From: an uncultured Verrucomicrobiota bacterium
GTDB lineage: Bacteria > Verrucomicrobiota > Kiritimatiellia > CAIVKH01
DNA: 64,000 bases
Direction: 5' to 3'
Assembly (NCBI GenBank): GCA_937872895.1
Contig: CALMUP010000008.1
Location: 225,613 to 289,612, forward strand
Made by a program: the position numbers and the translations under genes. This document shows positions 6,498 through 23,075 of this stretch, in pieces. The stretch's first letter is position 1; each line of letters opens with the position of its first letter. A model generated the notes under the pieces. The model saw only the letters and a list, made by a program, of their open reading frames with translations, made no database searches and was not told where the DNA came from.

Positions 6498-6642
6498 GGT
6501 GTGTCTCCGGGTGGAAACGTTAACCAAGCAGGGCGGGGGCGGCAATCAGGAAAGGCGGGGCGGGAAAGGGGTACCGGGATACGGGAATGGTCCCGTTCAT
6601 GATCGTCATGAGGTGACGGAGAGGGCGATGTCGTGGGCATTT

Positions 6643-6707
6643 CATAGCCGGGATAAACCCGGCTCTACTTTTCGAGGTAGAGCCGGCTTTACGCCGGCTA
6701 TGGGTGG
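6643..6707. repeat. REP-like nested palindromic element, family A: AGCCGGG-N5-CCCGGCT-CTAC, a loop, then GTAG-AGCCGG-N5-CCGGCT. A second copy lies at 63040-63098.
   Basis: Two near-identical inverted arms, each itself a hairpin. The same architecture recurs at 63040-63098 with about 85% identity. Confidence 0.5.
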
Positions 6708-6835
6708 TATGTATTCCGGGATAAGGGAAACCGGATGCGAGAACAGCCCGGTTGATGTTCGCAACAGGCCGCGGCGAGGGCGTGTTTCGGGATGGCGCAC
6801 GCGTCGGTTCATAATCCTGCCATGGGCTTTTCCGG

Positions 6836-6900
6836 CGAATATCGCCGGAACTACAGAAGAAGATGATGTATCGGAAAACCTGTAGTTCCGGCGTTATACG
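6836..6900. repeat. REP-like nested palindromic element, family B: CCGGCG-N5-CGCCGG-AACTACAG, a loop, then CTGTAGTT-CCGGCG-N5-CGCCGG. A partial copy lies at 11066-11095.
   Basis: Same arm/loop/arm architecture as family A with a different core. A half element (ctgtagttccggcgatgttcgccgg) is present inside the 10.5-11.4 kb repeat array. Confidence 0.5.
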
Positions 6901-6964
6901 CCGGAAGGAAAAGGGTCTTGCTCGGTAGTTTGTGTTTCGCGCGGTGGTGGCGTAGGGTGCGGGT

Positions 6965-7237
6965 ATGCAAGAGAAGCATGTGCGATCGTTGGGGGTGTTG
7001 GTGGCGTTGCTGTGGTTTTTTCCGACCTGGCTGATCCTGATGGCACTATACCATTACGGGTTGCGGGAGGCGGAGCGGTTCTGGGAGATCGAGATCGCGC
7101 TGTGGATCAAGAACCTCGGTTCGTTTGCGCTGCTGGCGCTCTCCATCGCCTTCGTGACGCGGCGGGTGTCGCGGTGGATGGACAAACAATTTCCGCATAG
7201 CACACCGCGTTCGGCCGACTGGCGCGATGCCGGTTGA
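6965..7237 (+). CDS. Small hypothetical membrane protein (two predicted TM helices)
   Basis: 90-aa ORF with two hydrophobic stretches (LGVLVALLWFFPTWLILMALY; LGSFALLALSIAFV). No homology recognised. Confidence 0.35.
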   Translation: MQEKHVRSLGVLVALLWFFPTWLILMALYHYGLREAERFWEIEIALWIKNLGSFALLALSIAFVTRRVSRWMDKQFPHSTPRSADWRDAG

Positions 7238-7244
7238 GCAAGGA

Positions 7245-8174
7245 TCAGGGGGCGGTGCGCAGGGAAACACCGTCCCAGGTGATGGCGCGATCGGCGGCGC
7301 GCAGGTGATCCCACGAGAATCCGGCCACGAGGTCAACGGGACGGACCGGTGCGGCGTCGCGGGTGAGGCCCGCCGCGTGGGCGATCCAGCCGCACAGTGC
7401 TTCCGCCGCGTAATGCCGACGCAGCGTGGGCACGGCAACGCTCTGGTGGAACTTGGCGAGTTTGCCGCCGGTGGTTTCGAGCAGTAGCAGGTGGTGGCGG
7501 TAGCGCGGGGTGGGGAGGTGCAGGGCTTGCTGGAGAAGCATCTGGACCGGGGCGCTGGGCGCGAGGTCGCGGCCGCGGATGAGATGCGTGACCCCGAGGC
7601 GGGCATCGTCGACCACGCAGGCGAGGTGGTAGGCGATGGCCCCGTCGCGGCGGCGTACGACCGGGTCGCCCATGTCACGGGCGGGATGCTGGGTGATGCG
7701 GAGGCCGCTGTCATCGGTGACGTCGATGGCCGTGTCGGGCATGCGTACGCGCAACGGGTCGGAGCAGGAACGCCAGCCGGTGGCGGGAAGGAGACGGGAG
7801 CGGCACTGGTTGTCGTAGGCGAAGCCGCCGTCGGGGGCGGGGCGTCCGATGGCTTTCAGGCGGGAGCGGCTGCAGGAGCAGGGGTAGAGCAGGCCGGCGG
7901 CGGCCAGGCGATCCAGCGCGGCTTCGTGGTCGGCGAGAGCGCGGTGCTGGATCTCGACCGAATCCCAGTCCAGGCCAAACCACGACAGCTCCTCGATCAT
8001 CGCTTCGGTCAGTTCGGGCCGGCAGCGTTGCGGATCGAGGTCCTCCAGGCGCAACACCACGCGACCGCCCGCTGCGCGTGCCGCGAGCCAGCACAGCAAT
8101 CCGGACAACAGCGTGCCCGGGTGGGCATGGCCGGTGGTCGAAGGGGCGAAGCGGGTGACAAGGGGGGCGGTCAT
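7245..8174 (-). CDS. gluQ: Glutamyl-Q tRNA(Asp) synthetase
   Basis: From the internal ATG the product reads [47 protein letters not shown], a class I aaRS HIGH-like motif typical of GluQRS/YadB, and is about 310 aa. The 200-aa N-terminal extension in the ORF track is a Pro/Arg-rich GC artefact. Confidence 0.8.
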
Positions 8175-8938
8175 GGGGAAGAAGATGGGGATGGCAATGA
8201 AAATGGGGATGGGAATGGGGATGGAGATGGGGGCGTGGGACGAGTTGGTGATTGGTTCAAGTGTTTCCGGAGCAGGTTCCATCCGGGCAGGAAACTGTTC
8301 ATCAGGTGGTAGAAGCGCCGGTTGTGGGAAGGTTCCAATAGGTGGACGAGTTCGTGGACGACGACATACTCGAGGCATTCCGGTGGATGTTTGGCCAGTT
8401 CGGAGTTCAGTCGGATGTGGTGCTTGCGGGTATGGCAACTGCCCCAGCGGGATGTCATCTTCTGCACATGCCAGCGGGTGGCATGGACCTTCAGAACGGG
8501 TTCCCACTTTGCGGCAAGGGCGGGTAGGGCGAGGCGGACCTGGTTCCGGTACCAGGCGTCCAGCAGGGCGGCCCGGGAGTTCGTCGTGTGCGTACCTTCG
8601 CGTACCTGCAGAACAATGGCGTCGTGCGTTACGTCGACGGATGGCGTGGCGTGCGCTTCCTCGATCCGCAGGGGAAGCGCGCGGCCCCAGGCGAAATGCC
8701 GTTCGCCGTCGGTGAATGCGGCGGCCGGCGTGAGGGTCCGGGACAAGATCCGTTCGCGGTGCCGGGCGATCCATGCGGTTTTTGATGCGGCAAACGCCCG
8801 GATATCGTCCAGCGGCATGCGTGTGGGTGCGGAAATGCCGACACGCCCATCCGGCGGATAAACCCGCAGATGGATGTTCCGGATGTTTTTACGCTGCACG
8901 GCAATGCGAACCGCATCGATTTCGATCAGACACTCCAT
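8171..8938 (-). CDS. M48/YgjP-like (DUF45, SprT/WLM-type) zinc metallopeptidase
   Basis: [11 protein letters not shown] HExxH motif in a roughly 255-aa product. Start moved to [12 protein letters not shown]. Overlaps the gluQ start by 4 bp. Confidence 0.7.
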
Positions 8939-9256: not shown

Positions 9257-9330
9257 GCGGGTATAGTTCAATGGTAGAATAGAAGCTTCCCAAGCTTCGG
9301 GCGCGGGTTCGATTCCCGCTACCCGCTCCA
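9257..9330 (+). tRNA. tRNA-Gly (anticodon CCC)
   Basis: GCGGGTATAGTTCAATGGTAGAATAGAAGCTTCCCAAGCTTCGGGCGCGGGTTCGATTCCCGCTACCCGCTCCA. The 7-bp acceptor stem GCGGGTA/TACCCGC, D-loop, anticodon stem GAAGC/GCTTC with loop TTCCCAA, T-arm GCGGGTTCGATTCCCGC and encoded CCA are all present. Confidence 0.85.
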
Positions 9331-9351
9331 GTTTCCCGGAGGGTTCCCGTC

Positions 9352-10533
9352 ATGGTGTTTCGATTGCTTCCCCTTTTGCTGGTGGTGGGTTCCGTGCAGG
9401 CCGAGTCGTGGGAGCGGGTGGCGGAGGGGAACCGGGCGTTCGCGGTGTCGCTGTACCGGGAGGTGGCGGGCGAGCCGGGCAATGTGTTCTTTTCCCCCTT
9501 CAGCATCTCGACGGCACTGGCCATGACCTATGTCGGAGCCCGGGGCGAAACGGCCGCGCAGATGCAATCAACGCTGCACTTTCCCGAATCACCCGAGTAT
9601 TTGCCGGAGGTCTGGGGCATGTGGCAGTCGCGGGTGGATCAGGTGGGTCGTGAGGGCAAGGTGACGCTTTCGGTGGCGAACTCGCTGTGGCCGGACGAGC
9701 GCTATCCCTTTCTTGATACCTACATGGCGACGGTTCGGGAACGTTTCAGGTCGGAGGTGTTCCCGGTGAACTTCGCGGAGACGGAGGCGGCGCGCCAGCA
9801 GATCAATACCTGGGTCGAGGACGCGACGGAGCAGTTGATCAAGGACCTGATCCAACCGGGCGTGTTGAATGCGCTGACCCGCATGGTGCTGGTGAATGCC
9901 ATCTACTTCAAGGGAACGTGGCAAACCACCTTCGGCCCCGAAGTGACGCGGCCGCAACCGTTCCACCTCGCCGATGGCTCGGTGATCGAGGTGCCGACGA
10001 TGTACGGGAAGGTGCCGGCCCGGTATGCGGCGCTCGATGGGGTGCAGCTCCTGGACCTGCCGTACCGGGGCGACCAGGTGTCGATGCTGGTGGTCGTGCC
10101 GGATACGCAAGAGCGGATGGCGGACCTGGAACGTTCGCTGTCGGTCGCGGTCATGGATCAATGGCTGGGCGCGGTCGAACCGACCGAGGTGCGGGTGTTC
10201 CTGCCGAAATTCACGATGACCCAGCACCTCGCTTTGTCGAAGATCCTGCAGGCGCTGGGCATGGTCGTGCCGTTCGATGACAAGGCGGCGAATTTCGCCG
10301 GCATGGACGGCCATGAAAACTACCTGTACATCAGCGACGTGGTCCATCAGGCCTTCGTCGCGGTGGATGAGGCGGGCACCGAGGCGGCGGCGGCGACGGC
10401 GGTGATCATGCAGGCGCGTTCGATGCCGCGGCCGAGTCCGGAGTTCCGGGCCGACCGGCCGTTCCTGTTCTTCATCCACGAACGCGCCAGCGGTAGCATC
10501 CTGTTTGCCGGGCGGGTGATGGATCCGCGGTAG
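9352..10533 (+). CDS. Serpin (serine protease inhibitor) family protein, secreted
   Basis: Signal peptide followed by serpin-family blocks (FFSPFSISTALAMTYVGARGETAAQM; NAIYFKGTWQTTF) and a hinge/reactive-centre-like region (EAGTEAAAATAVIMQARSMP) with a C-terminal PFLFFI motif. Confidence 0.85.
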   Translation: MVFRLLPLLLVVGSVQAESWERVAEGNRAFAVSLYREVAGEPGNVFFSPFSISTALAMTYVGARGETAAQMQSTLHFPESPEYLPEVWGMWQSRVDQVGREGKVTLSVANSLWPDERYPFLDTYMATVRERFRSEVFPVNFAETEAARQQINTWVEDATEQLIKDLIQPGVLNALTRMVLVNAIYFKGTWQTTFGPEVTRPQPFHLADGSVIEVPTMYGKVPARYAALDGVQLLDLPYRGDQVSMLVVVPDTQERMADLERSLSVAVMDQWLGAVEPTEVRVFLPKFTMTQHLALSKILQALGMVVPFDDKAANFAGMDGHENYLYISDVVHQAFVAVDEAGTEAAAATAVIMQARSMPRPSPEFRADRPFLFFIHERASGSILFAGRVMDPR

Positions 10534-10539
10534 CGTCAG

Positions 10540-11480
10540 CGGAGTGAACGTTACGTGGAGGGGGAACCACGAATGGACACGAAAGAACACGAATATGGCA
10601 GGTGCGTTGGTGATGGGGCGTTGCTTTCTTTTGAGTAATGATTCAGGAGTTTAACCGCAGAGTTCGCAGAGGGCGCAGAGGGTGGATGTGATGGGGTTGA
10701 TGGAGGCTGGGGTTCTGGGGGGTGAATTTTTCGCTCTGCGTATTCTGCGCGATCTGCGGTTCATTCCTTCCGGCAGTTTAACCACGGATGGGGCAGGTGG
10801 GGTGGTGACGGGGCGTTGCTTTGCTTTGAGTATTGATTCAGAAGTTTAACCGCAGAGTTTGCAGAGGGCGCAGAGGGTGGCTGTGATGGGGTTGATGGAG
10901 GCTGGGGTTCTGGGGGGTGACTTTTTCGCTCTGCGGATTCTGCGCGATCTGCGGTTCATTCCTTCCGGCAGTTTAACCACGGATGGACACGGAGGCACGC
11001 GGATGGGAAAACGAGGATTGAACAGAAGATCGCGAAGGACACGAAGGTGGGATGAAGAGCCTTCCATCTGTAGTTCCGGCGATGTTCGCCGGAAATTGAA
11101 CATGCACGGACGAATGATATGGGAAATCGGAACCGCAGAGGGCGCAGAAACCGCAGATGGAAAAGGGGAACCGCGGATTACGCGGAGAGCGCGGATGGGA
11201 GAGAAGAAATTGAACCACCCGCTTCGCTAGAGGACACGGAGAGCACGGAGAAGAAGTATGGAAATGGGTGTAGTAGCCGCTCCGTGAGCGGCAGGGAAAC
11301 GGAACGGACCTTGAACCGCAGAGGACGCAGAGACCGCAGAGGAAAAACGAATGGGTAGGATCCGGCATCCTTGCCGGACCGCCGGATTGGGAAAGTCCAA
11401 CCGCGAATTACGCTGATGACGCGGATGGGGGAATGGTTGATGGCCAGGAACTGATTCCGCGGATGGAGCCGCAGTGCTTG
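10540..11480. repeat. Array of at least 10 degenerate 30-bp iteron-like motifs, (G)AACC followed by three RCNGA pentamers at 9-10-bp spacing and then (A)TGG, on both strands. It includes a 195-bp tandem duplication (unit 1 about 10616-10810, unit 2 about 10811-11005).
   Basis: Example instances are gaaccACGAAtggacACGAAagaacACGAAtatgg, aaccGCAGAgttcGCAGAgggcGCAGAgggtgg, gaaccGCGGAttacGCGGAgagcGCGGAtggg and gaaccGCAGAggacGCAGAgaccGCAGAggaaaaacgaatgg. The reverse-strand copy cgctctgcgtattctgcgcgatctgcggtt shows the motif is not confined to one strand. No consistent reading frame runs through the repeats. Confidence 0.6.
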
Positions 11481-11881
11481 CCCGCCAAAGGCGCGGCCCT
11501 AACCGCGCTGAGGCGGAAGCGCGCGCGGCGGGGAGGCGGGACGGAACAAGGCCGGACAACCCGGCCGAAGGAACCCAACCAGGCCCCGCCAGTACCCATT
11601 GTCGCGACCAGACCAACCCCATCCCCATTTCCATTTCCCATCTCCATTCTTCCTCTCCCTCCTCCCCGCCTTGACCCCGCCCTCCACCCGCTGGTATCGT
11701 CCGATCCAGCAAGGAGCGCAATCTGGGGGGGCATGATGAGAGCGTTAAGGAACGGAGAGATATTGGGCCGTTGCTCGACGTGTGCGGACGCAAACGAATG
11801 ATGTGTTTGCATCGATGATGGAGATGTATGGTTGCTAATGCTGAAATGATCCCCACAGCTCAATGAACAAACGATTAGCCT

Positions 11882-14278
11882 ATGATTATCTACGTCTCCA
11901 CCAAGTCCGGCTTTATTGATGACGTATCCAAGAACCGGATTGAGGATAAAATTCTCACCTTGTTCAAGCGGCAACTGAGGCAGTCTACAGGGGAAAGCGA
12001 GATTAACTCGTGGAAGAACTCGATGCAGTACATGCACAATGTTCTCGTCCACAGCAAGATTCCGGACGACGCCGGCGTCGCCATTGAATACAACATTCCT
12101 CAAACATCCAAACGGATCGACTTTATCTTGACCGGTCAGGATGGTAACCGCCGTGATACGGCGGTCATTGTGGAGCTCAAGCAGTGGCAGGAAGTCTGGC
12201 GCACAGAAAAGGATGGTATTGTCACCACCGTCCTGAATGGCCGGAAGGTAGACACAAACCATCCCTCGTTTCAGGCATGGTCGTATGCCGCCTTATTGGA
12301 GGACTTCAATGAAGCCGTGCGCACAGAGCGAATCCAGCTCTCTCCCTGCGCCTACCTGCACAACTGCAGTTCCCCCCACGAGATCAACCATCCCTTTTAT
12401 GCTGAGCATACCGGCAAGGCACCTTCGTTTCTCAAAGCGGATGTGGAAAAGCTAACGGAATTCATTGAAAATTTCGTGAAGCATGGTGACCGCGGCAAGC
12501 TGATCTATCGAATCGATCAGGGCAAAATCAAACCGTCGAAGAGCCTTGCCGATGCCCTGCTGAACATGATTCAGGGCAACAAAGAGTTTCTACTCATCGA
12601 TGACCAGAAACTGGTCTACGAAACCGCCCTTGCGCTAGCCGACAAAGCGGAGCGCCACGGTAAACAGGTGCTCCTCGTGGAAGGCGGACCTGGAACCGGA
12701 AAATCGGTAGTTGCGATTAATCTTCTGGTCGAAATCACCAAGAGGGAAAAGGTGGTCCACTATGTCACGAAAAACGCTGCACCACGACAAGTGTATCAGA
12801 GTAAACTTGCTGGTACCTTGAGCCGGACCAGAATCGAAAATATGTTCCAGGGTTCCGGAAAGTATGTTGATAAGGAGAAAAATTGTATCGATGTGCTGGT
12901 GGTTGATGAAGCCCACCGACTAAATGAAAAGTCAGGCATGTTTCAGAACCTCGGTGAAAATCAGATCAAGGAAATCATTCATGCCGCCAAGTTGAGCGTT
13001 TTTTTCATCGATGAGGATCAGCGCGTCACATGGAAAGACGCCGGGCGGAAAAGTGACATCCGCCAATGGGCGAAACGTGCGGGCGCAGCCATCACAGAGT
13101 TGGCCCTTCAGTCTCAGTTCCGTTGCAATGGTTCAAACGGATATCTGGCCTGGCTAGATCATACCCTTCAAATACGGGAGACGGCGAACAGGTCGCTCGA
13201 AGGTGTTGATTATGACTTTCGTGTTTTCGATGATCCGATCCAACTGCGGCAGGTCATCTTTGAGAAAAACCTCGAAAGCAACAAGGCGCGTATCGTGGCC
13301 GGTTATTGCTGGGACTGGATCAGCAGAGCAGACAAGCGAAAAACCGACATCAATTTCCCGGAGCATGGATTTAAGATGCGGTGGAATCTAACCGATGACG
13401 GCGGACTTTGGATTCTAAAGCCGGACTCTGTGAATGAGGTTGGTTGCATTCACACCTGCCAAGGACTTGAGCTCGACTACATCGGTGTGATTATTGGTCC
13501 TGACTTCCTGGTCCGTGATGGTCGTGTTGTTGTATCGCCTGCTAGCCGAGCCAAGACCGACCAGTCCCTGAAGGGTTACAAACAGATGGCCCGCGTAAAT
13601 CCGGATGCCGCGTTTGCCAAAGCGGCCGAGATCATCAAGAACACCTACCGAACCCTGATGACCAGAGGGCAAAAGGGTTGTTTTATCTTCTGCACCGATC
13701 CAGAAACCAATGCGTTCTTTAAGCAGATGGCATCGACGGCTATGAAGGGATGCCAGATGGCGGAACAGGTACCTTATGCCGGGATCCCATTGACAATCTT
13801 GGATGCCGCCGACGTTAGACCTTACGAGAACGCGGTCCCGGTCTATGACCTGCGTATCGCCGCAGGCATTTTCAGCGAAGAACAGCAGGCCCGTGATTGT
13901 GACTGGGTTGAATTGCCCGACCCGTTCACGGCAAAGCCCGGATACTTTGTCGCCCGGGTCGTTGGGCATTCCATGAATCGTCGAATCGCCAGCGGATCGT
14001 GGTGCCTGTTCCGCACGCCGTCTGCCGGAAGCCGAAATGGCAAGATCGTACTGGTGCAACACCGAAACATTCAGGATCAGGACCTCGGTCAATTCGCCAT
14101 CAAAACCTATTATAGCGAGAAATCCTTTGTCGGGGATGAATGGCGCCACGAGCGAATCATCCTCAAACCTGACACCACGGCATCCGGATACCACGACATA
14201 ATCCTTGAGAAGGATGAGGCCGTTGACCTTCGAATCCTTGGTGAATTTGTGGCATCTTTGGGTCAGAGGCCGGATTAA
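11882..14278 (+). CDS. Multidomain nuclease-helicase-peptidase fusion: N-terminal PD-(D/E)xK nuclease-like domain, DUF2075/Schlafen-type P-loop ATPase-helicase core, and C-terminal LexA-like S24 autopeptidase domain
   Basis: N-terminus KRIDFILTG...AVIVELKQW is a D...ExK-type motif. Walker A VLLVEGGPGTGKSVVA and Walker B/DEAH VLVVDEAHRL lie within a DUF2075-like core. The C-terminus aligns with LexA motif by motif: RIAAGIF against RVAAGEP (Ala-Gly site), ARVVGHSM against LRVSGMSM (Ser), NGKIVLVQ against NGQVVVAR, and FAIKTYYSEK against VTVKRLKKQG (Lys). GC is about 50% against about 65% in the flanks. Confidence 0.8.
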   Translation: MIIYVSTKSGFIDDVSKNRIEDKILTLFKRQLRQSTGESEINSWKNSMQYMHNVLVHSKIPDDAGVAIEYNIPQTSKRIDFILTGQDGNRRDTAVIVELKQWQEVWRTEKDGIVTTVLNGRKVDTNHPSFQAWSYAALLEDFNEAVRTERIQLSPCAYLHNCSSPHEINHPFYAEHTGKAPSFLKADVEKLTEFIENFVKHGDRGKLIYRIDQGKIKPSKSLADALLNMIQGNKEFLLIDDQKLVYETALALADKAERHGKQVLLVEGGPGTGKSVVAINLLVEITKREKVVHYVTKNAAPRQVYQSKLAGTLSRTRIENMFQGSGKYVDKEKNCIDVLVVDEAHRLNEKSGMFQNLGENQIKEIIHAAKLSVFFIDEDQRVTWKDAGRKSDIRQWAKRAGAAITELALQSQFRCNGSNGYLAWLDHTLQIRETANRSLEGVDYDFRVFDDPIQLRQVIFEKNLESNKARIVAGYCWDWISRADKRKTDINFPEHGFKMRWNLTDDGGLWILKPDSVNEVGCIHTCQGLELDYIGVIIGPDFLVRDGRVVVSPASRAKTDQSLKGYKQMARVNPDAAFAKAAEIIKNTYRTLMTRGQKGCFIFCTDPETNAFFKQMASTAMKGCQMAEQVPYAGIPLTILDAADVRPYENAVPVYDLRIAAGIFSEEQQARDCDWVELPDPFTAKPGYFVARVVGHSMNRRIASGSWCLFRTPSAGSRNGKIVLVQHRNIQDQDLGQFAIKTYYSEKSFVGDEWRHERIILKPDTTASGYHDIILEKDEAVDLRILGEFVASLGQRPD

Positions 14279-14357
14279 TCGGGATTCTGGGGAACTCCGA
14301 TGGGGGCATCCTCGTCAAAATGACGGCTGGGCGGGACTAGGGAAGAGGAGGACGGTG

Positions 14358-15671
14358 ATGCGGAAAATCCTGCTGGGTGTTTCGTCGTTGGCGGTGGTGG
14401 TGTTGGCCGTGTTGTTCCTGGTGTATCCGGCGTGGGTGGTGGGGTCCTTGGTGATTGATCCGCGGTTGCGGGCGACGGGGGAGAGCCGGTTTGTACCTGC
14501 CTGGTTTCTGGATGCTACGCCCCGGTTTACGGCATGGGCCGAGATGTACCTTTCCTCCCGTCACGCGGCATCGCTTCATCACCAGGATGTCGCCGGCACC
14601 GAATGGCCGATGTTCGGGGCGGTGTTCTACCTGGTAACCGCCGAGGAATTGCACCGACGAGGTGCGATTGATGCAACGCGAGGTCGCGTCCGGCAGGCGG
14701 TGGACCGTGCGGTGGAGATTGTGGCCTCGCCGGATACCGCCACCTGGGTGATCACCAAATGGGGTCCATCCTACCTGGAACGAGAGAATGTATTCTACCG
14801 CATGCTCCTGATCATGGGGTTTGCCGCCTACGACTCGATGACCGGGGATCAACGATATCAGGCAACGATGACGGAACAGCGGACCTCGCTGGCGCGTGAA
14901 CTGATGGCCGCACCGTTCCATGTGCTCGATGATTATCCGGGCGAATGTTATCCGAACAATGTCCTGTGGGCGGTGGCCGCGATCCAACGCGCATCCCGGC
15001 TGTCCGGTACCAACTCCGATGACCTGGTTGCCGCTATCATGACCGCCATGAATGGGCCGCTCAAGGCGCAGGAAGGAATGCCGGCGTTTCAGGTGGATGC
15101 GCGGTCCGGCGCGTTGCTCCAGGGTGCGCGGGGGTGCGGGAACTCGGGCATCCTGCCGTTCGCGGCCGAACTCGATGTGGACAAGGCGGTCAAATGGTAC
15201 CGTGCCTATGAGAAGGGATTCTGGAAGGATACCGGATGGGCGGTCGGATTCACCGAGGAACCGCACGGGACGGCACAGGACTTCATGGATGTTGATTCGG
15301 GTCCGGTGGTCTTCGGATTCGGGTCCGTCGCCTCCGCCTTCGGTATCGGCGCAGCAAAGTCGGTCGGTCGCTTTGACCATGCCGCCCCGCTCACCATGGA
15401 GGCGGTCGCGGCGGCCTGGCCGACACCGTTCGGGATGATCCTTCCCGGCGCAATGGGGTACTTGGCCGCGGATAGCTGGAGCCTCGGCGAGGTGGCACTG
15501 TTGTATACGATGACGCGCCCCGTGTTCACCGAGGAAACCGTGCCGTTTACCGGTAGGACGCCGCTCATGGTCTGGCTGTTGTTCATCGTCTATGCCGGAC
15601 TCGGCATCCTCGTCATCCGCGCACGCATCCGTTTTCTCATCGCGGCCTGCCGAAAAACGCCCGGAACCTGA
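14358..15671 (+). CDS. Hypothetical membrane-anchored protein: one N-terminal TM, a roughly 350-aa extracytoplasmic domain and two C-terminal TMs
   Basis: Start at the internal ATG (MRKILLGVSSLAVVVLAVLFLV), 80 bp after the fusion gene on the same strand. C-terminal hydrophobic helices (LMVWLLFIVYAGLGILVI). No domain recognised. Confidence 0.55.
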   Translation: MRKILLGVSSLAVVVLAVLFLVYPAWVVGSLVIDPRLRATGESRFVPAWFLDATPRFTAWAEMYLSSRHAASLHHQDVAGTEWPMFGAVFYLVTAEELHRRGAIDATRGRVRQAVDRAVEIVASPDTATWVITKWGPSYLERENVFYRMLLIMGFAAYDSMTGDQRYQATMTEQRTSLARELMAAPFHVLDDYPGECYPNNVLWAVAAIQRASRLSGTNSDDLVAAIMTAMNGPLKAQEGMPAFQVDARSGALLQGARGCGNSGILPFAAELDVDKAVKWYRAYEKGFWKDTGWAVGFTEEPHGTAQDFMDVDSGPVVFGFGSVASAFGIGAAKSVGRFDHAAPLTMEAVAAAWPTPFGMILPGAMGYLAADSWSLGEVALLYTMTRPVFTEETVPFTGRTPLMVWLLFIVYAGLGILVIRARIRFLIAACRKTPGT

Positions 15672-15777
15672 GTAGTGAGACGTGAGGGGGAATGGTTACC
15701 CGCCGAAGGCGGATCCGGCTTTGGCGGGATGGGTGATGGAGAATGGTTGATGGCTGATGGTTGATGGGGATGGGGGG

Positions 15778-15812
15778 GGCAACGCCCTGACGGGCGCACT
15801 ACGAACGGGGGG
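15778..15812. repeat. Upstream copy of a 38-bp direct repeat, GGGCAACGCCCTG(A/G)CGGGCGCACTACGAACGGGG, containing a short GCGCCC/GGGCGC palindrome
   Basis: Near-identical to 19778-19815. Together they bracket the 16103-19720 gene. Confidence 0.5.
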
Positions 15813-16102
15813 GCATCGATGACGTGTACGAGCAAACTTGCGACGAAGGGGCCGTGCGAAGCGTGGGCGATCGGTGATGGGAATGTAGGAGGGGTACAGC
15901 CGGTCGGGTGGTTTTCGTGTTTTGTTGGTTTCACCTGTAGCCGGGATCGCTGATCCCGGTTGGGGCGGATCGGTGCCGGGCAGGTCATTCCTGTTTTGGG
16001 GTGAGTCGACGGGGATATCTGTGAAGGGGGGTGTCGTCTTGACCTGTTGTCCCGGGGTCGGGTAGGGTTGCTCTGAGGTTTTTTTTAGCGAATCAAGGAG
16101 GG

Positions 16103-19100
16103 GTGATGTACGGGTGCGGTGTGATGAATCCTGGTGGTCAGTCTGTTGTGGGCTGGCGACGTGTTCCCCGGTCTGTTTGCATACTCCTGCTGGCCGTCGG
16201 GTTGACGATTCTGTCCGCTCCGGTTTCCTCCGCGCAACTAGCTCCGGGTTCCACCAATTATTTCGTGGCAGCCGGTGAGACCGGGGTGGATTATTTTCTG
16301 GTTGTTCCGAGCAACTACGTGGCGACGAATCCTCCTCCCTTGCTCATCTACTTCGATCCCGCCGGAAGTCCCGAATACGGCCTTCCTCGGCTGCAGCCCA
16401 GTTGCGGCAAGGCCGGCTGGATCCTGGTCTGTCCGCGTGTCCTCGCCAACGGCACGGTGCCGCGCGTCAAGCGGGTGGAGCGCGAGTTGATTGACGATAT
16501 CTGGCGGCGCATCCGGTATGACCGGGCACGCATGTACTTTGCCGGATTTTCCGGTGGAGCCTGGCGCGCCAACGAACTCTCTCGCCAGTATGCCAACGAG
16601 GTCGCTGGAACCCTGCTGTACGGAACCTGGATCGGGCTCTACGACGAATTCACCGTTTTTCCCAACCGGCTGGCGATTGCCCGGTCGAACGGCAACAGCG
16701 ACAGTTCGGCGATCAGCTCGGAACCGGTCGACAACACCTACTACACGCAGACGCTGGTGCGGGTGCGCAACTTCAGGTTCGCTGGCGGTCACCAGGTCGG
16801 CCCTGTCGGTACAACCGATGTGGCGATTGCCTGGTTAAACCAGGACTTCGCCTCCAACGGAATCCATTACGTCGCCGGTTCGTACGAGGTCGAAGCCTCG
16901 AACCGCATGGCGGCGGCCCAGCTGGCCTGGAGTGCGGAAAACTATACCGATGTCGCCACGAACGTGGTCAGTGTAATCAACGACTACCCGATCTCCACCT
17001 CGATCAGGACAGCCGAGCAGGTTATCGTTTCGGTGTTCAGCGATACCGCGCGACGCGCTGCGGTGGCGATAGATCCCTTGCCGACCAATGCCTGGGCGAT
17101 CTCGTGGACCTTGTTCCAGCGTTCTTTGAGTGTGTTGAGTGACTTCCCGCCGGAGGTTCCGATCAGTTATCTGGAGGCGTCCATCGTGTATGCGCCGACC
17201 AATTGGCTGGCCCTCCGGTACCTGGTCACGGAAATGAGTGACAGTCCCACGTTGTCATGGCAGGAGTTTCCGCGGCTTGAGGCGCTGGCCCAGGCTGCCT
17301 ACCAGGCGCGCCCCCAGTCGTGGCATAGCCTACATGCCCTGGCCCGTGTGTGTGCCCTGGCGGGGCATACGAGGAAGGCACGGAACTTGGCGCTGGCCTC
17401 GATGAATGCCATCACAAATGACTATAGCGGCTTTACCCTCAGCGCAGCCTCGGAGTTTTACCAGTCGCTCACCAACAGTGCATCCCAGTACCGTTCGCTG
17501 CCGCAGGCCGAGGACATGGAGTTGTTCATCCCGGATCGTTCCATCCACCACGAGCGCGGGTGGATCAATTCCTGGGGCCTGGCCAAGGCGCAGGACGGCG
17601 TGGTGCATGGGGGGTGCCAGGCGTTGGCGTTGGAGGGGGATCCCTGCGTGATCCGCTGGAACTTCCAGGAGCTCACCAACGTTACGGTTTGGACGGACTA
17701 TTACATCCGACCTTCCCTTGGTAACAGTACCATGGATCCGCCAGTGCTGCCGGACGCTGGAGCGTTGTACTATCTGGAGGAAACGGGACGGTTGCGGGTG
17801 TACGATGGGGGTTCCGGGGGCGGGTGGACGAACCTGAACCATGCTCCGTTATCGACCAGCGATTGGTCTCGAATCACCATCGCGGAAAACTATGGCGCGC
17901 AGACCTGGGCGGTTTCCATCAACGACACCGTGGTCCAGGCCAATCTTGGTTTCGCTAATAACACCAATGTGTTTACCGCCATTTATCTCCTCCATCAAGC
18001 CGCCACACCAACGTATGTCGATACGTTGTCGGTTTCGACGGTGGTTCCATCGCCGGATGCGGATCGGGATGGATTGCCCGATCCGTGGGAGGAGACCTAC
18101 GGGAACCTGTCGGCCAACGATGATCCGGATCTTGATTTCTACCTGAACCTCGAGGAGTACCGTAACCAGACCTCGCCGTTTGTCTCGAATGCACCTCCGG
18201 CATCGAAGTACCGGACCGTCAGGCTGGACCGGGTGTCGTCTTACGGGACCACCATGCCGTATTGGGATCTGGACCGGGTGAACGATCCATGCCGAAGGGG
18301 GGTGTGGCGGGGCGATGTGGTGCTGGCGGCCACCAACAAGGCAACCCTGACCCTGCGGCTATGGCAGACCAATAATTTCGTCTACTATCACGGGATAGCA
18401 AACACCAATGCGATGGCGCTTCCGGCGAACATGGCCCTGGTACAAAACGCCCAATTCAGCCTGGCTGGTCCATTGAATACCCGTTGCCGGGTCGAGTTCA
18501 ACGAGCAGGTCGGGTCGCTGGTCATCACCGATCTTGGTTTGAACGATGCCGATGGCGATGGGTTGGCTGATGAGTGGGAATTGCGTTACGCGGGTAGCAC
18601 GACCGGGGCCGATCCATGGTCGAACCAGGACAATGATGCCTATCCGCTGATCGCGGAATACTTCAACGGCTCATCACCCACCGCGTACGATCCTTATTCG
18701 CCGTACCATGTGGTCACAATGCCGGGCACCCACAACGGGTGGAGTACCACGATTGACCGCATGTCCTTGATCGGTGACCACCTGTGGCGCGGTGATTTAT
18801 ACATGTACAACGCAACCGAGCAGTTCAAATTCGCCGCGAACGCGAACTGGACGCTGAACTGGGGTGACAACAACCAGCCATCCAACCGACCCAACTTTCG
18901 CGATGTCGGCAATATCAACGGGAACAATATATTGGTTAATTCCACCTCCGGTTATGCCATCGTCTTGTTCAACGACAAGTCCCGTGCCTACTCCGTTACG
19001 GATTACCGACTGGATATGGATTCCGACGGGTTGCCCGATGCCTGGGAACTACTCTATCAAGCCCAACCGAACTGGTTCCGGGTGGGCGATAATCCGGATC

Positions 19101-19720
19101 AGGACAAGTACAGCAATGCGGATGAGTACCTTCATGGGGGCGATCCACTCGTCAGCGATGGATGGGGTTCCGAGGCGGCCGCGTTGTCCATTGCCGGGAA
19201 CCACAACAACTGGAACCCTTCACTGAATGCCATGCAACTGGTGTCCAATCATCTGTCGCAGCACGAGGTGGAGTTGCTTATGCCCACCGGCCTCCAGTAC
19301 AAGGTGGCCTTGTCCGGGACCTTGAGCGGCGCGTGGGGCGATCCGGTCCAGGGGGACCGGACGGTTCCGCTCATCGGGATGGGGCAGGCGGGCACTCCGG
19401 CATCGGTATCGATCAGCGAGCCGATGGAGGGAGTTTACCGGTTCTCCTTCCATGACCTGAGCGGGATCTATTCGGTGGAGTATGCGCCGCAGTATGTCGA
19501 TCTCCGTTCCGGTGTCCTGCTGAACCGGACCAATCTTGCCCTGTCGTGGACCAGCGTCACCAACCGACGTTACACCGTCTGGATGAGTACCAACCTGCTT
19601 GCAAGCCCGTGGCGTTTGGCCACCAACATTCCGGGGACTCCTCCTATTTCGGTTGCGATCACCACCAACCTCCTCACCAATGCAGCGTCCGTTGTCTACT
19701 TCATTGAGGTCCAGCCCTAG
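16103..19720 (+). CDS. Large secreted multidomain protein: N-terminal alpha/beta-hydrolase (esterase/PHB-depolymerase-like) domain followed by calcium-binding thrombospondin-type-3-like Asp-rich repeats
   Basis: Signal peptide (VCILLLAVGLTILSAPVSSA), a GFSGGA G-x-S-x-G nucleophile elbow, and three DADRDGLPDPWEE / DADGDGLADEWE / DMDSDGLPDAWE repeats. 1205 aa. AAGGAGG lies 5 bp before the ATG at 16106 and the GTG at 16103 is the alternative start. Confidence 0.7.
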   Translation: MMYGCGVMNPGGQSVVGWRRVPRSVCILLLAVGLTILSAPVSSAQLAPGSTNYFVAAGETGVDYFLVVPSNYVATNPPPLLIYFDPAGSPEYGLPRLQPSCGKAGWILVCPRVLANGTVPRVKRVERELIDDIWRRIRYDRARMYFAGFSGGAWRANELSRQYANEVAGTLLYGTWIGLYDEFTVFPNRLAIARSNGNSDSSAISSEPVDNTYYTQTLVRVRNFRFAGGHQVGPVGTTDVAIAWLNQDFASNGIHYVAGSYEVEASNRMAAAQLAWSAENYTDVATNVVSVINDYPISTSIRTAEQVIVSVFSDTARRAAVAIDPLPTNAWAISWTLFQRSLSVLSDFPPEVPISYLEASIVYAPTNWLALRYLVTEMSDSPTLSWQEFPRLEALAQAAYQARPQSWHSLHALARVCALAGHTRKARNLALASMNAITNDYSGFTLSAASEFYQSLTNSASQYRSLPQAEDMELFIPDRSIHHERGWINSWGLAKAQDGVVHGGCQALALEGDPCVIRWNFQELTNVTVWTDYYIRPSLGNSTMDPPVLPDAGALYYLEETGRLRVYDGGSGGGWTNLNHAPLSTSDWSRITIAENYGAQTWAVSINDTVVQANLGFANNTNVFTAIYLLHQAATPTYVDTLSVSTVVPSPDADRDGLPDPWEETYGNLSANDDPDLDFYLNLEEYRNQTSPFVSNAPPASKYRTVRLDRVSSYGTTMPYWDLDRVNDPCRRGVWRGDVVLAATNKATLTLRLWQTNNFVYYHGIANTNAMALPANMALVQNAQFSLAGPLNTRCRVEFNEQVGSLVITDLGLNDADGDGLADEWELRYAGSTTGADPWSNQDNDAYPLIAEYFNGSSPTAYDPYSPYHVVTMPGTHNGWSTTIDRMSLIGDHLWRGDLYMYNATEQFKFAANANWTLNWGDNNQPSNRPNFRDVGNINGNNILVNSTSGYAIVLFNDKSRAYSVTDYRLDMDSDGLPDAWELLYQAQPNWFRVGDNPDQDKYSNADEYLHGGDPLVSDGWGSEAAALSIAGNHNNWNPSLNAMQLVSNHLSQHEVELLMPTGLQYKVALSGTLSGAWGDPVQGDRTVPLIGMGQAGTPASVSISEPMEGVYRFSFHDLSGIYSVEYAPQYVDLRSGVLLNRTNLALSWTSVTNRRYTVWMSTNLLASPWRLATNIPGTPPISVAITTNLLTNAASVVYFIEVQP

Positions 19721-19777
19721 CGCCGCACCTTGCGTTCTTTTGGTGCCGGACCCGCCTTGGACAAAGCCGAGGGGGGT

Positions 19778-19815
19778 GGGCAACGCCCTGGCGGGCGCAC
19801 TACGAACGGGGCGGG
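19778..19815. repeat. Downstream copy of the 38-bp direct repeat GGGCAACGCCCTGGCGGGCGCACTACGAACGGGG
   Basis: Matches 15778-15812 with one substitution. Lies between the large secreted-protein gene and secA. Confidence 0.5.
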
Positions 19816-19994
19816 GGTTCGTTGGGTTGGCCAGGTGGTTGGTGTGGCTTTGGGACCCGTCGTTGATTCCTTGAACCGTTCTTGTTCGAGGCTCCTGCCG
19901 GGCCGGAGGCACGGGTCCGGGCGGGCTTGCCAAACGGGGGCGGAATCCGTACTGTTTCGGGCTTCATTCGTCATTCCTACCTAGGATGTGCATT

Positions 19995-22900
19995 ATGCAG
20001 TGGCTTTTACGTAAAATTGTCGGAACCAAGAACGACCGCGATGTGAAGCGGATGCGGCCGCTGGTCGCCCGGATCAACGAGCTTGAGGTCGGTCTCCAGT
20101 CGCTGTCGGACGAGGCCCTGAAGGCGAAGACCGGGGAGTTCCGCAAACGGCTGGCCGAGGGCCAGACCCTGGCCGACCTCGAACTGGAAGCCTTCGCGGT
20201 GGTGAAGAACGCCTGCCGCCGGTTGTGCGGGACCGTGGCCACGGTGTGCGACCACACGCTGACCTGGGAGATGGTTCCGTTCGATGTGCAGCTCATCGGC
20301 GGCCTGGCGTTGCACTACGGCAAGATCGCGGAAATGGCGACCGGTGAAGGCAAGACCCTCGTCGCCACCATGCCGGCCTACCTGAATGCCCTGACCGGCA
20401 GGGGCGTGCATGTCGTGACGGTGAACGACTACCTCGCCCGCCGCGACTCGGAATGGATGGGGCTGGTGTACAAGTTCCTCGGCCTGACCGTCGGCTGCAT
20501 CCAGAGCCAGATGGATCCCGCGACCCGGCGCGTCCAGTACGCCTGCGACATCACCTACGGCACGAACAGCGAATTCGGCTTCGACTACCTGCGCGACATG
20601 GGCATGGCCTTCCGTCCGGAGGACCAGGTGCAGCGCGGCCACACCTACGCGATCATCGACGAAATCGACAGCATCCTGATCGACGAAGCGCGCACCCCGC
20701 TGATCATCTCCGGTCCGGCCCCGTACTCGACCGCACAGTACATCGAGCTGAAACCGCTGGTCGAGCGCCTCTACCGCAAACAGCGCGAACTCTGCAACAC
20801 GCTGGTCACCCAGGCCAAGGAATTGATCGAGAAGGGGGACAACGACGAAGCGATGCGCAAGCTCTACCAGGTCCATCAGGGCATGCCCAAGCATCCGCAG
20901 ATGCAGCGCCTGCTCGAGGACGCCAGCGTGCGCCGCCTGCTCGAGAAGATCGAATCGATGATGCTGACCGAGATGCACAAGGAAGAGGGCCGCGCCCTGC
21001 GCGAGGAACTCTACTTCGTCATCGAGGAGAAGCACCACGACGCCAGCCTGACCGAGAAGGGGTGCGAGGCGTTGAGCCCGAACGATCCCGACGCCTACCT
21101 GCTCCCCGACATCGTCTCGGCCATGTCCGAGCTCGACGGCAACGCCGGGTTGACCGAGGAGCAGAAGTTCGAGAAGCGGCAGGAGATCCAGAACGCCTTC
21201 GCCAACCGCAGCGAACGCATCCACGCGGTTGACCAGCTCATCCGCGCCTACAGTCTCTACGAGCGCGACGTCCAGTACGTCGTGCAGGACAACCAGGTGG
21301 TCATCGTCGACGAGAACACCGGACGCCTGATGTCCGGACGCCGCTGGAGCGACGGCCTGCACCAGGCGGTCGAGGCCAAGGAGGGGGTCAAGATCGAGCG
21401 CGAGACCCAGACCCTCGCCACCATCACCATCCAGAACTACTTCCGCCTCTACAAGAAGCTGTCGGGCATGACCGGCACGGCCGAGACCGAGGCCGACGAG
21501 TTCCACCAGATCTACAAGCTCGACGTCATGGTCATCCCGACCAACCGTCCGGTGCGCCGCCTCGACTACAACGACTTCATCTACAAGACACAGCGCGAGA
21601 AGTACAACGCGATCATCCAGGAGATCAGCGAGTGCCACCAGCGCGGCCAGCCGGTACTGGTCGGCACGATCTCGGTCGAGGCCTCGGAGCTGGTCAGCCG
21701 CATGCTGCGCCGCCAGAACATCCCGCACAACGTGCTCAACGCGAAGAACCACCAGCGCGAGGCCGACATCGTGGCCAACGCGGGCCAGCCCGGCGCGGTG
21801 ACCATTGCCACGAACATGGCCGGCCGCGGCACCGACATCAAGCTCGGTCCGGGCGTAGTGCACATCGCCCGCGACGTGATCACTTCGGGTGCGTCGCTCG
21901 CCACGAAGATCGAGGGCAAAACGCTGCGCGACATCCTGCTCGACAAGCCGGCGGGCCTGCACGTCATCGGTTCCGAGCGCCACGAGTCGCGGCGCATCGA
22001 CCGCCAGTTGCGCGGCCGTTGCGCGCGCCAGGGCGATCCGGGTTCGTCGCGGTTCTACGTCTCGCTCGAGGACGACCTGATGCGCATCTTCGGGTCGGAC
22101 CGCATCTCGAAGCTCATGGACAAGCTGGGCATCGAGGAAGGCGAGGTCATGGAGCACAAGTGGCTGAACAAGTCCATCGAGCGCGCCCAGCGCCGGGTGG
22201 AGCAGCACAACTTCTCGATCCGCAAGCGCACGCTCGACTACGACGACGTGATGAACAAGCAGCGCGAGATCATCTACGGGTTCCGCAGCGAGATCCTGCA
22301 GGCGGAGGAGGTCAGCCCGCACCTGCTCGACATTGCCGGCGACGTGATCGCCGCCCAGGCCGAGCTGGTCCGCGAGGAGGACGAGGACAGCCTCAAGGTC
22401 TTCATCGAATGGGTCAACACCAAGTTCCCGGTGGGCCTGAAGCGCGACCACCTCAAGGACGTGGCGTTGACGCCGGACGCGTTGACCGATCACGTGCTGG
22501 GCCGGGTCAAGGAGGCGTACGGCATCAAGGTCAAGGTCGAGGACCCGGACCGCCTGAAGTCGATGGAGCGCTACATCGTCCTCAACGCGATCGACACGCA
22601 CTGGCAGGAGTACCTGCGCAGCATGGATGCGTTGCGTCAGGGTGTCGGGCTGCGCGCCTACGGCCAGCGGGATCCGCTGGTCGAGTACAAGAAGGAAGCG
22701 TACACGATGTTCTCGGACCTGATGGACAAGATCAAGGCGGACGTGTCGGACCGGATGTTCCGCGCGGCGACCTCAGTCAACGCCTTTCAGTCCTTCCTGT
22801 CGGCCTTGCCGCGCATCCAGACGCAGCACGCGTCGGTGGCGGCGCTCGGCGGCAGCACATCGGCGCAGCCGGTGGCGGGAGCGGCGGCGGGTGGCGGAGC

Positions 22901-23075
22901 GGCCCCGGCGGCTCCGGCTGCGCGTCCGCAGTCGCAGCAGGAGGCGGCGATGGAGGCCGCGTTGTCGCGCAAGGCGGCTCCGGTGCGGCGTGACATGCCC
23001 AAGGTAGGTCGCAACGATCCCTGTCCGTGCGGCAGCGGCAAGAAGTACAAGAACTGCCACGGCGCGAACGGATGA
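19995..23075 (+). CDS. secA: Preprotein translocase subunit SecA, with a C-terminal SEC-C zinc-binding motif
   Basis: [20 protein letters not shown] aligns to the SecA N-terminus. DEAD-like motor motifs are present throughout and the C-terminus is [14 protein letters not shown]. The in-frame ATG at 19986 is an alternative start. Confidence 0.95.

Follow-up and report, generated by a model that had tools for sequence, protein, structure and literature searches.

The interval from about 10.55 to 19.9 kb of the analyzed 64,000-nucleotide stretch (the window) is probably a junction at which two gene blocks of a Kiritimatiellia chromosome meet, each conserved independently of the other, and not a single element inserted at a tRNA gene. 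The left block consists of HerA-like ATPase, GluQRS, YgjP, tRNA-Gly(CCC) and serpin genes, and the right block starts with secA and lnt (Table 1). Conservation of gene order ends at ~10545 on one side and at ~19925 on the other, and the junction in between is filled with lineage-specific genes, among which only a nuclease-helicase gene looks horizontally acquired. The tRNA–serpin pair is conserved, an att repeat and an integrase are absent, the compositional anomaly is confined to a single gene, and a conspecific structural variant breaks at ~15.7 kb. These observations suggest a model in which the two blocks would have been joined by rearrangement, probably with the help of intergenic repeats, and the junction would have been filled piecemeal: by clade-typical palindromic REP/MITE-like repeats, by one horizontally acquired Nhi-like nuclease-helicase-S24 gene retaining the ~51% GC of a lower-GC donor, and by two genes of native composition that encode lineage-restricted envelope or secreted proteins, one an Ldi-like (alpha/alpha)6 membrane protein, the other a secreted protein of 1204 aa. 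The helicase gene may have arrived alone, or its MazG-like partner may have been lost.

Table 1. Features at and around the junction (window positions, in nucleotides)
Feature	Position	Strand	Evidence
Conserved upstream block	4059..8938	(-)	gene calls, Pfam; same order in L088, L090, L091, L092
HerA-like DUF87 ATPase	4059-6497	-	gene call, Pfam
90-aa ORF	6965-7237	+	gene call
GluQRS-type glutamyl-Q tRNA(Asp) synthetase	7245-8174	-	NCBIfam GluQRS
YgjP/SprT-like hydrolase	8171-8938	-	gene call, Pfam
tRNA-Gly(CCC)	9257-9330	+	ARAGORN; Rfam 71 bits
Secreted serpin	9352-10533	+	Pfam PF00079, E 1.1e-116, profile positions 2-370 of 370
REP/MITE-like palindromic repeats, AACCGCAGAG..CGCAGAG type	about 10560-11450		repeat and motif searches
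Nhi-like gene, 798 aa	11882-14278	+	Pfam, invariant motifs, PADLOC partial matches
Membrane-anchored (alpha/alpha)6-barrel protein, 437 aa, uncharacterised family	14358-15671	+	AlphaFold, Foldseek
Strain-level breakpoint	15672..15748		L114 comparison
42-nt direct repeat, left copy	15772-15813	+	repeat search
Secreted multidomain protein, 1204 aa	16106-19720	+	translation; sub-threshold domain matches
42-nt direct repeat, right copy	19773-19814	+	172 nt upstream of secA ATG
Conserved secA block start	19925..23075	+	promoter-like element, Pfam secA, then lnt
Promoter-like element TTGCCA-N17-TACTGT	19927-19955	+	conserved in L001-L004
secA	19986/19995-23075	+	Pfam

All features listed in the initial annotation were recovered at or close to the positions given there. 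The initial annotation had placed a switch from housekeeping to accessory gene content at the tRNA gene. The tRNA-Gly(CCC) lies where it had been predicted, is the sole Rfam match over the block and is identical, letter for letter, in the relative L088. As depicted in Table 1, the predicted serpin was likewise recovered, with a full-length serpin domain, and it starts 21 nt past the tRNA. Immediately 3' of tRNA-Gly(CCC), L088/L089 and L090 have orthologous serpins of 53% and 47% identity, respectively, in the same orientation as in the window and with a gap of ~17-20 nt. Since it keeps that position in these two relatives, the serpin is a conserved downstream partner of the tRNA and not island cargo, and the proposed switch is contradicted by a shared gene order that runs past both genes to ~10545. 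The GluQRS proteins of L088/L089 and L090 are 70-71% identical to that of the window, and similarity halts directly past the serpin; in L088/L089 the pair is followed by genes for a DUF2203 protein, an aspartyl/lysyl-type tRNA synthetase and an ABC transporter. In metagenomes, serpin relatives comprise one conspecific contig (L093) and sequences of at most 47% identity that are not accompanied by the tRNA. The gene order past the serpin is common to none of the relatives examined, and the part of the window left of the HerA gene (<4.06 kb) is likewise unshared with these same relatives, indicating that loss of gene order is not peculiar to the block. The comparison genomes are fragmentary metagenome-assembled genomes with ~70-87% protein identity, and any order of events read from them is provisional.

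On the right-hand side, the block is followed by secA, in agreement with the initial annotation. A SecA scan of 185,579 species genomes yielded 80 Kiritimatiellia loci that were kept for comparison; secA–lnt is conserved in most of them, and in several the shared order extends to ~33.6 kb. Upstream of secA, similarity to L001-L004 stops at ~19925, at the promoter-like element. None of the 80 loci shares an upstream gene with the window, and the relatives have little in common there even with one another. In addition, tRNA-Gly(CCC) was found within up to 10 kb upstream of secA in none of the 39 loci, out of these 80, that were scanned for tRNAs, nor did any of them display the empty site that had been anticipated, in which tRNA-Gly would be followed directly by secA. 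The empty-site comparison proposed in the initial annotation can thus give no positive result. The tRNA-Gly and secA belong to separate conserved blocks (HerA–GluQRS–tRNA–serpin and secA–lnt onwards).

The gene order shared with relatives stops at a repeat array. It holds a tandem duplication of a 195-nt unit (10588-10977), the two copies being 93% identical, carries nine copies of its motif versus 0.19 expected by chance, and has inverted arms that form a long hairpin (folding z -4.6). The conspecific contig L093 agrees with the window in the order serpin–repeats–helicase and has a single copy of the 195-nt unit versus two in the window. L084 also has pairs of the motif, and so does L010, where they lie between secA and lnt. 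The earlier description of the array as iteron-like holds as far as the repeats themselves are concerned, but their iteron nature was rejected, as other genomes have the motif pairs in their intergenic DNA too and a replication gene is lacking. The array rather resembles REP/BIME or MITE-like repeats in being made of short inverted-arm units with stable hairpins, dispersed in the intergenic DNA of related genomes and variable in copy number between strains. It differs from these in that its sequence family is clade-specific and no RAYT-type transposase was seen.

The two proteins encoded between the helicase gene and secA are of different kinds. The 437-aa product, previously listed as an unknown membrane protein, has no match in Pfam or NCBIfam and belongs to a family of 925 representative clusters at E <= 1e-3 (best 58-63% identity). 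It can now be modelled (pLDDT 94.8) as an (alpha/alpha)6 barrel with a transmembrane helix at either end, the predicted core of which superposes on that of linalool dehydratase-isomerase (Ldi; Foldseek E about 5e-9, TM 0.55-0.68). With ~19% identity and terminal transmembrane helices that set it apart from Ldi, the predicted likeness is one of fold only. The second protein, secreted as proposed but of 1204 rather than 1205 aa, carries a signal peptide, a GFSGG esterase-like motif, three TSP3-like repeats and X25/CBM-like modules; the esterase and TSP3 labels given to it earlier rest solely on sub-threshold matches. It is lineage-restricted, its only five homologues being a conspecific one (99% identity) and four of 35-40% identity, in unrelated contexts. 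The direct repeat reported to bracket its gene is real, yet measures 42 and not 38 nt. The copies are identical at 39 of 42 positions, show no significant secondary structure and have no further copies within the window, none being expected by chance; in L001-L004 the DNA upstream of secA lacks a conserved counterpart of the right copy.

A second conspecific contig, L114, is 99% identical to the window over 15774-20447, and its left 2.3 kb are unrelated to the window. It carries, left of the breakpoint and on the opposite strand, a Ser/Thr kinase-WD40 gene (Pfam) in place of the 437-aa gene and holds the left 42-nt copy with a diverged left half. Because an exact 27-mer is common to window position 15749 and L114 position 2163, the break was placed to the left of 15749. 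As a single short-read contig, L114 could in principle be chimeric at low-complexity repeats. The exact stretch in common, at 27 nt, falls short of the 31-mer probably used in the Logan assemblies, which argues against such a chimera. Since this conspecific contig has the kinase gene left of ~15.7 kb, the tRNA-Gly-to-secA block is not one unit.

The initial annotation had raised the possibility that 9.3-19.8 kb as a whole is an old, decayed island, once integrated at the tRNA-Gly(CCC) 3' end and now devoid of its integrase. Integration at tRNA genes is well known, and the locus resembles tRNA-integrated islands (P4-like, ICE-type) in lying beside a tRNA, in its unshared gene content past the serpin and in its one gene of clearly foreign composition; moreover, the surroundings of the tRNA vary among relatives. 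The variable 8-kb insert of L090 and the extra gene of L091, however, both sit on the 5' side of the tRNA, and the gene abutting its 3' end is conserved. An integrase was indeed lacking, as had been noted: no integrase or recombinase Pfam domain was detected in any gene called between lnt and a point 10 kb upstream of the tRNA, nor was a remnant found in the intergenic ORFs examined. The repeat of the tRNA 3' end expected at the distal boundary was not found either, as, even with up to 3 mismatches allowed, the 25-nt 3' end occurs only once, and the longest exact match to a 63-nt 3' probe is 10 nt versus a mean of 12.3 nt for random 63-mers of the window. The compositional heterogeneity attributed to the block also shrinks to the helicase gene (GC z -3.1, GC3 z -2.0), the sole outlier; the serpin (GC 0.642, GC3 0.85, typical of the window), 437-aa and 1204-aa genes lie within +/-1.1 sd of the window in GC, GC3 and codon usage. 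Tetranucleotide deviation across the 1204-aa gene does not exceed that across secA, and this signature is therefore non-discriminating. Together with the lack of any relative in which tRNA-Gly and secA are, or ancestrally were, neighbours, and with three of the four genes being native in composition, these results make integration of the whole block at the tRNA highly improbable. An ancient island with fully decayed integrase and att sites, whose genes have drifted to host composition, may formally account for the 437-aa and 1204-aa genes. In a lineage with poorly conserved gene order, a tRNA beside unshared genes is insufficient to call an island, and in this case the gene next to the tRNA is ancestral.

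Two more limited insertions within the junction were also weighed. An islet at ~10.55-15.7 kb (repeats, Nhi-like helicase and Ldi-like gene), behaving as a strain-variable hot spot of recombination at intergenic repeats, would have its left edge where shared gene order ends and the copy-number-variable array lies, and its right edge (15672-15748) coincides exactly with the L114 break. It would include the helicase gene, foreign in composition and defence-gene-like, and inverted ATGG/CCAT-rich clusters (11619-11647 and 15729-15773), the only two in the window outside coding sequence, flank the helicase and Ldi-like genes. These low-complexity clusters are short, however, the Ldi-like gene is native in composition, and the comparison involves one alternative contig, in which no serpin was seen left of the kinase gene; rearrangement fits it equally well, presence or absence of an islet not being demonstrated, and we regard such an islet as unlikely. 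Alternatively, the 1204-aa gene could be a separate 4.0-kb insertion before secA, the 42-nt repeats representing a duplicated junction and a divergent Ser/Thr kinase gene the ancestral neighbour. The 42-nt repeat brackets exactly this gene, its right copy lies outside the conserved secA leader of relatives, the minus-strand kinase gene of L114 lies directly left of the cassette, and at least 12 more distant relatives have an opposite-strand kinase-domain match 0.7-1.2 kb upstream of secA (a Ser/Thr kinase of roughly 390 aa in L038 and L043, the two that were checked). Homologues of the 1204-aa protein occur in unrelated contexts, one of them adjoining a serine recombinase and an IS110 transposase. 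However, an empty site was not observed, the homologues in L110 and L112 lack repeats at their flanks, and no recombinase is located nearby; the kinases are 27-30% identical, differ in length and domains and may not be orthologues, and the composition of the 1204-aa gene is within the variance of the window. An insertion of this kind appears slightly less likely still. Under the junction model, preferred here, what remains is routine, that is, a chromosomal junction and one horizontally acquired defence-like gene.

The initial annotation is supported in viewing the stretch as a mosaic, and the simplest account of this helicase gene is that it was acquired horizontally and separately. With a GC content of 0.516 and a GC3 of 0.61, the lowest of the 45 window genes, it lies 10 GC points under its flanks (0.61-0.63; window, 0.62), whereas homologues match the GC of their own hosts. 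Thousands of full-length homologues at ~60% identity occur in unrelated phyla, and the closest (80% amino-acid and 73% nucleotide identity) resides on a contig of 53% GC. At the nucleotide level, similarity to that contig does not extend past the gene, apart from short repeat-motif matches. Owing to the deviant GC, the ~60% identity across phyla and the 53% GC contig of the nearest homologue, the gene was probably acquired horizontally as a single gene. A phage origin was considered and rejected: IMG/VR holds no close relatives, and its three distant matches (27-35% identity) cover the first ~615 residues only, that is, not the S24 part.

The 798-aa product is an SLFN-g3/DUF2075 helicase (PF09848, E 2.1e-106, Pfam) with a Peptidase_S24 domain (PF00717, 30.5 bits; cut-off 23.3). 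The GGPGTGKS and DEAH motifs of the DUF2075 SF1 helicase core are invariant in 24 homologues, as is an N-terminal D80...E98-x-K100 motif located on predicted beta strands; no Pfam nuclease model matches, and this motif supports the label of a putative PD-(D/E)xK-type nuclease. At the C-terminal end, A660-A661-G662, S697 and K741 are invariant in the same 24 homologues, with spacings of 35 (G662 to S697) and 44 (S697 to K741). In E. coli LexA (A84-G85, S119, K156) the corresponding spacings are 34 and 37. Judged from these residues, the domain carries a LexA/UmuD-type Ser-Lys dyad and an Ala-Gly cleavage-site signature, and self-cleavage is predicted. A fold search with the whole-protein AlphaFold model returned RecD2, SLFN11 and Dda; with a pLDDT of 66 this model is too poor for domain-level matches, and the nuclease and S24 folds were not confirmed structurally. 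No solved structure was found by sequence search. The partial PADLOC matches are to the PDC-S41, AbiO and Nhi models, and similarity to the Nhi models is limited to the helicase core (E about 1e-13). Our literature search returned no paper linking DUF2075 with MazG or naming PDC-S41 and no description of the family; two papers mention both DUF2075 and 'S24', possibly in fusion.

Nhi of S. epidermidis (SERP2475; Bari et al., bioRxiv 10.1101/776245) and the 'Nhi-like' proteins (Millman et al., bioRxiv 10.1101/2022.05.11.491447) are single-protein anti-phage nuclease-helicases. Akin to these, the window protein has a DUF2075 SF1 helicase preceded by a putative N-terminal PD-(D/E)xK-type motif. 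Unlike Nhi, it adds a C-terminal LexA-like S24 domain with the conserved AAG/Ser/Lys signature, and its family, known here from sequence, usually adjoins a MazG-like gene. Such a gene neighbours the homologues in four of five independent contexts (27-80% identity to the window protein) and is missing from the window. The thread of wider interest is this helicase family alone, in which a Schlafen/Nhi-type nuclease-helicase carries a LexA-like self-cleavage module and recurrently has a MazG-like gene as its partner. We tentatively suggest, as a possibility still well short of probable, that it represents a widespread unstudied Nhi-like plus S24 family, normally paired with a MazG-like nucleotide pyrophosphohydrolase in an uncharacterised two-gene defence or DNA-damage module, of which the window copy would be an orphan. 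In such a module, RecA filaments or ssDNA would stimulate self-cleavage, by which the nuclease-helicase would be released or activated.

The stretch between tRNA-Gly(CCC) and secA is best read as a junction between two conserved blocks, which would have been filled by repeats specific to the clade, a single Nhi-like gene gained by horizontal transfer, and two native envelope or secreted proteins restricted to the lineage; at ~15.7 kb there is probably at least one structural variant within the species. The observations in the initial annotation are largely right, whereas its reading of the stretch as an island anchored at the tRNA is not supported. Its feature inventory proved essentially correct, since gene calls, tRNA calls and a repeat search recovered each of the listed genes, the array and the bracketing repeat. 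The junction in itself is an ordinary finding, and the helicase-S24/MazG-like family is the sole lead deserving separate follow-up.

Features of the tRNA-Gly(CCC)-secA stretch and its left flank (window positions), with composition z scores, and MazG-like genes beside helicase homologues (positions on the respective contigs)
Feature	Position	Strand	Basis or remark	GC z	GC3 z
HerA-like DUF87 ATPase	4059-6497	-	gene call, Pfam		
90-aa ORF	6965-7237	+	gene call		
GluQRS-type synthetase	7245-8174	-			
YgjP/SprT-like hydrolase	8171-8938	-			
tRNA-Gly(CCC)	9257-9330	+	ARAGORN, Rfam; single tRNA placed		
Serpin	9352-10533	+	Pfam E 1.1e-116	+0.3	+0.7
Repeat array, 0.9 kb	between serpin and helicase				
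798-aa DUF2075/SLFN-type helicase with Peptidase_S24 domain	11882-14278	+		-3.1	-2.0
437-aa protein	14358-15671	+		-0.2	-0.4
1204-aa protein	16106-19720	+		-1.1	-0.6
secA, then lnt	after 1204-aa gene	+			
42-nt direct repeat	15772-15813 and 19773-19814		39/42 identical		
MazG-like (PF12643)	L084 9630-9986				
MazG-like (PF12643)	L085 7513-8004		context L085-87		
MazG-like (PF12643)	L116 3649-3954				
MazG-like (PF12643)	L118 5774-6070				

To reach the tRNA side of the junction in relatives we used GluQRS homologues, which yielded four informative contigs (L088/L089, L090, L091 and L092). L088/L089 (GluQRS 71% identical) carries HerA, a small ORF, GluQRS, tRNA-Gly(CCC) and serpin in this order, with a tRNA identical in sequence to that of the window and a tRNA-to-serpin-start gap of ~17 nt, as compared to 21 nt in the window; the genes past the serpin, for DUF2203, an aspartyl/lysyl-type tRNA synthetase and an ABC transporter, are all missing from the window. 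In L090 (70%), an 8-kb insert (reverse-complemented ~11700-19750) with glycosyltransferase, PIG-L and transporter genes separates HerA-GluQRS-YgjP from tRNA-Gly(CCC)-serpin, so that the variable segment lies 5' of the tRNA; tRNA and serpin are ~20 nt apart. L091 (83%) has an extra 242-aa gene (364-1092) between YgjP and the tRNA, at which the contig stops, and no integrase was found in the L090 and L091 inserts between YgjP and tRNA-Gly. Neither tRNA nor serpin lay within reach in L092 (68%). The tRNA-Gly(CCC)-serpin pair is thus an old and conserved one, and conserved gene order with relatives stops at ~10545, at the start of the repeat array. Since gene order left of HerA (below 4.06 kb) is not shared with these relatives either, its loss is lineage-wide and does not single out the block.

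Signatures of integration at the tRNA were likewise absent. We found no second copy of the 25-nt tRNA 3' end with up to 3 mismatches, and a 63-nt probe comprising the tRNA 3' half and its flank gave a longest exact match of 10 nt, below the mean of 12.3 nt for random 63-mers of the window; the proposed direct repeat of the tRNA-Gly 3' end is therefore missing. The absence of an integrase noted previously was borne out: no integrase, recombinase or transposase domain was detected among the genes called from 10 kb before the tRNA through lnt, nor in spurious-looking intergenic ORFs. Together with the conservation of the serpin 3' of the tRNA in relatives, these results speak against a tRNA-anchored island.

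On the opposite side, a SecA scan with one genome per species returned 80 Kiritimatiellia loci (61-87% identity), most of which keep secA-lnt, and in several the order runs on to window ~33.6 kb. Upstream of secA no match to the window was observed, including in the four closest loci (L001-L004, 83-87%), and these upstream regions differ among the relatives themselves too: L003 carries PurU, a ClpX-like ATPase and a hydrolase-VTT fusion, and L002 a giant fn3/beta-helix protein and an MBOAT. An empty site in which tRNA-Gly leads directly to secA had been suggested as a check, and none was encountered, tRNA-Gly(CCC) being absent upstream of secA from all 39 loci in which tRNAs were sought (upstream DNA up to 10 kb). 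Nucleotide similarity upstream of secA is confined to a promoter-like TTGCCA-N17-TACTGT (19927-19955), kept in the four closest relatives, and stops at ~19925. Among more distant Kiritimatiellia, no fewer than 12 loci show an opposite-strand kinase-domain match 0.7-1.2 kb upstream of secA, which in the two loci checked (L038, 8715-9905; L043, 8649-9821) corresponds to a ~390-aa Ser/Thr kinase, suggesting that a divergent Ser/Thr kinase may be the ancestral secA neighbour.

Two contigs of the same species bear on the integrity of the stretch. L093, from another sample and 98.9% identical, is collinear with window 6568-12793, confirming the serpin-repeats-helicase order, and it holds one copy (~4020-4215) of a 195-nt unit present twice in the window (10588-10977), a copy-number change which indicates that the array is unstable. 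L114 matches window 15774-20447 at 99.0% identity, a segment made up of the 1204-aa gene with the intergenic DNA before it and the start of secA. The leftmost 2.3 kb of L114 has no relation to the window; where the window has the 437-aa gene, this part encodes an opposite-strand 650-aa Ser/Thr kinase-WD40 protein with host-like GC3 (0.85). By sequence identity (27-30%), the kinases near secA in distant relatives may be non-orthologous to this one. As an exact 27-mer is shared at window 15749, the break falls after the 437-aa gene has ended (15671) and no further right than 15748, within a low-complexity GATGG/GGAATGG tract that immediately precedes the 42-nt repeat. Such a contig could be either an assembly chimera or a strain-level rearrangement. 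The Logan assemblies presumably use 31-mers, and because the shared stretch is shorter than this, we favour a real structural variant, that is a rearrangement polymorphism, over a chimeric contig. Whichever way L114 is read, the tRNA-to-secA stretch is not one unit. The window contains only two ATGG/CCAT-dense noncoding clusters (11619-11647 and 15729-15773), which are mutually inverted and flank the helicase and the 437-aa, Ldi-like gene.

Compositional heterogeneity had been ascribed to the block; it holds for the low-GC helicase gene, but not for the remainder, as the serpin, 437-aa and 1204-aa genes are ordinary. In 2-kb windows the sole departure in GC spans 10.5-15 kb (z ~ -3), and the helicase gene (GC 0.516, GC3 0.61) is the lowest among 45 genes. 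A dip of the tetranucleotide profile over the 1204-aa gene (z -2.2) is uninformative on foreign origin, because secA shows one at least as deep (z -3.0). Heterogeneity is accordingly a property of one gene and not of the block.

Full-length homologues of the helicase number in the thousands at ~60% identity, those with a name belonging to Polynucleobacter, Thiodiazotropha, Nitrospirota, Anaerolineae and another Kiritimatiellota. The best match (80% amino-acid and 73% nucleotide identity) lies on a 53% GC contig, with nucleotide similarity limited to the gene itself and, outside it, to short repeat-motif matches. There, and likewise in a contig of 50% GC, the homologue has the GC of its host, whereas the window copy lies 10 points under its flanks, which is good evidence for a probable, fairly recent horizontal acquisition of a single gene. 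PADLOC returned partial matches to PDC-S41, AbiO and Nhi, and the architecture is comparable with that of Nhi (10.1101/776245) and Nhi-like proteins (10.1101/2022.05.11.491447), the S24 domain being an addition in the window protein. An alignment of 24 homologues revealed invariant D80, E98 and K100, Walker A and Walker B, and A660-A661-G662, S697 and K741. The latter fall in the S24 region (residues 660-798, window 13859-14278) and correspond to the LexA cleavage site and Ser-Lys dyad, with a LexA-like spacing, suggesting that the S24 domain may act as a self-cleaving switch on the nuclease-helicase. A MazG-like gene adjoins the homologue in four of five independent contexts (27-80% identity) and is absent from the window; our literature search returned no paper linking a DUF2075 helicase with a MazG-like gene.

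Among the other proteins, the 437-aa protein received no family assignment; its confident model (pLDDT 94.8) predicts an (alpha/alpha)6 barrel with one terminal transmembrane helix at either end, and a fold closest to linalool dehydratase-isomerase. Homologues of the 1204-aa protein number only five, of which one is conspecific and the others share 35-40% identity with it. Their contexts are unrelated, one having a serine recombinase and an IS110 transposase as neighbours and another mfd. The 42-nt repeat around its gene, with no third copy elsewhere in the window, may be the scar of an insertion, a shared regulatory element or else a dispersed repeat of rare occurrence.

The repeat array consists of palindromic units with strong folding (z -4.6), and the 195-nt unit carries a 28-nt inverted pair. 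In L010 the DNA between secA and lnt (4870-4966) holds inverted motif pairs of a similar kind, as does the helicase-homologue contig L084 (12559-12597); with the same motif pairs in other genomes, the iteron reading was rejected, and the units are dispersed REP/MITE-like elements. Mutually inverted copies of a 29-nt sequence that contains a hairpin, TTCCGGCGATGTTCGCCGGAA, lie in the HerA/90-aa intergenic region (6829-6857) and inside the array (11067-11095).

The HerA-like ATPase and 90-aa ORF (4059-7237) adjoin GluQRS in all four relatives examined, and despite weak PADLOC HerA/mad8 matches they look like a core gene pair and not a defence island. At the left end of the window, beside urease genes, Rfam 5_ureB_sRNA matches 62-393 with 86 bits, above the gathering score.
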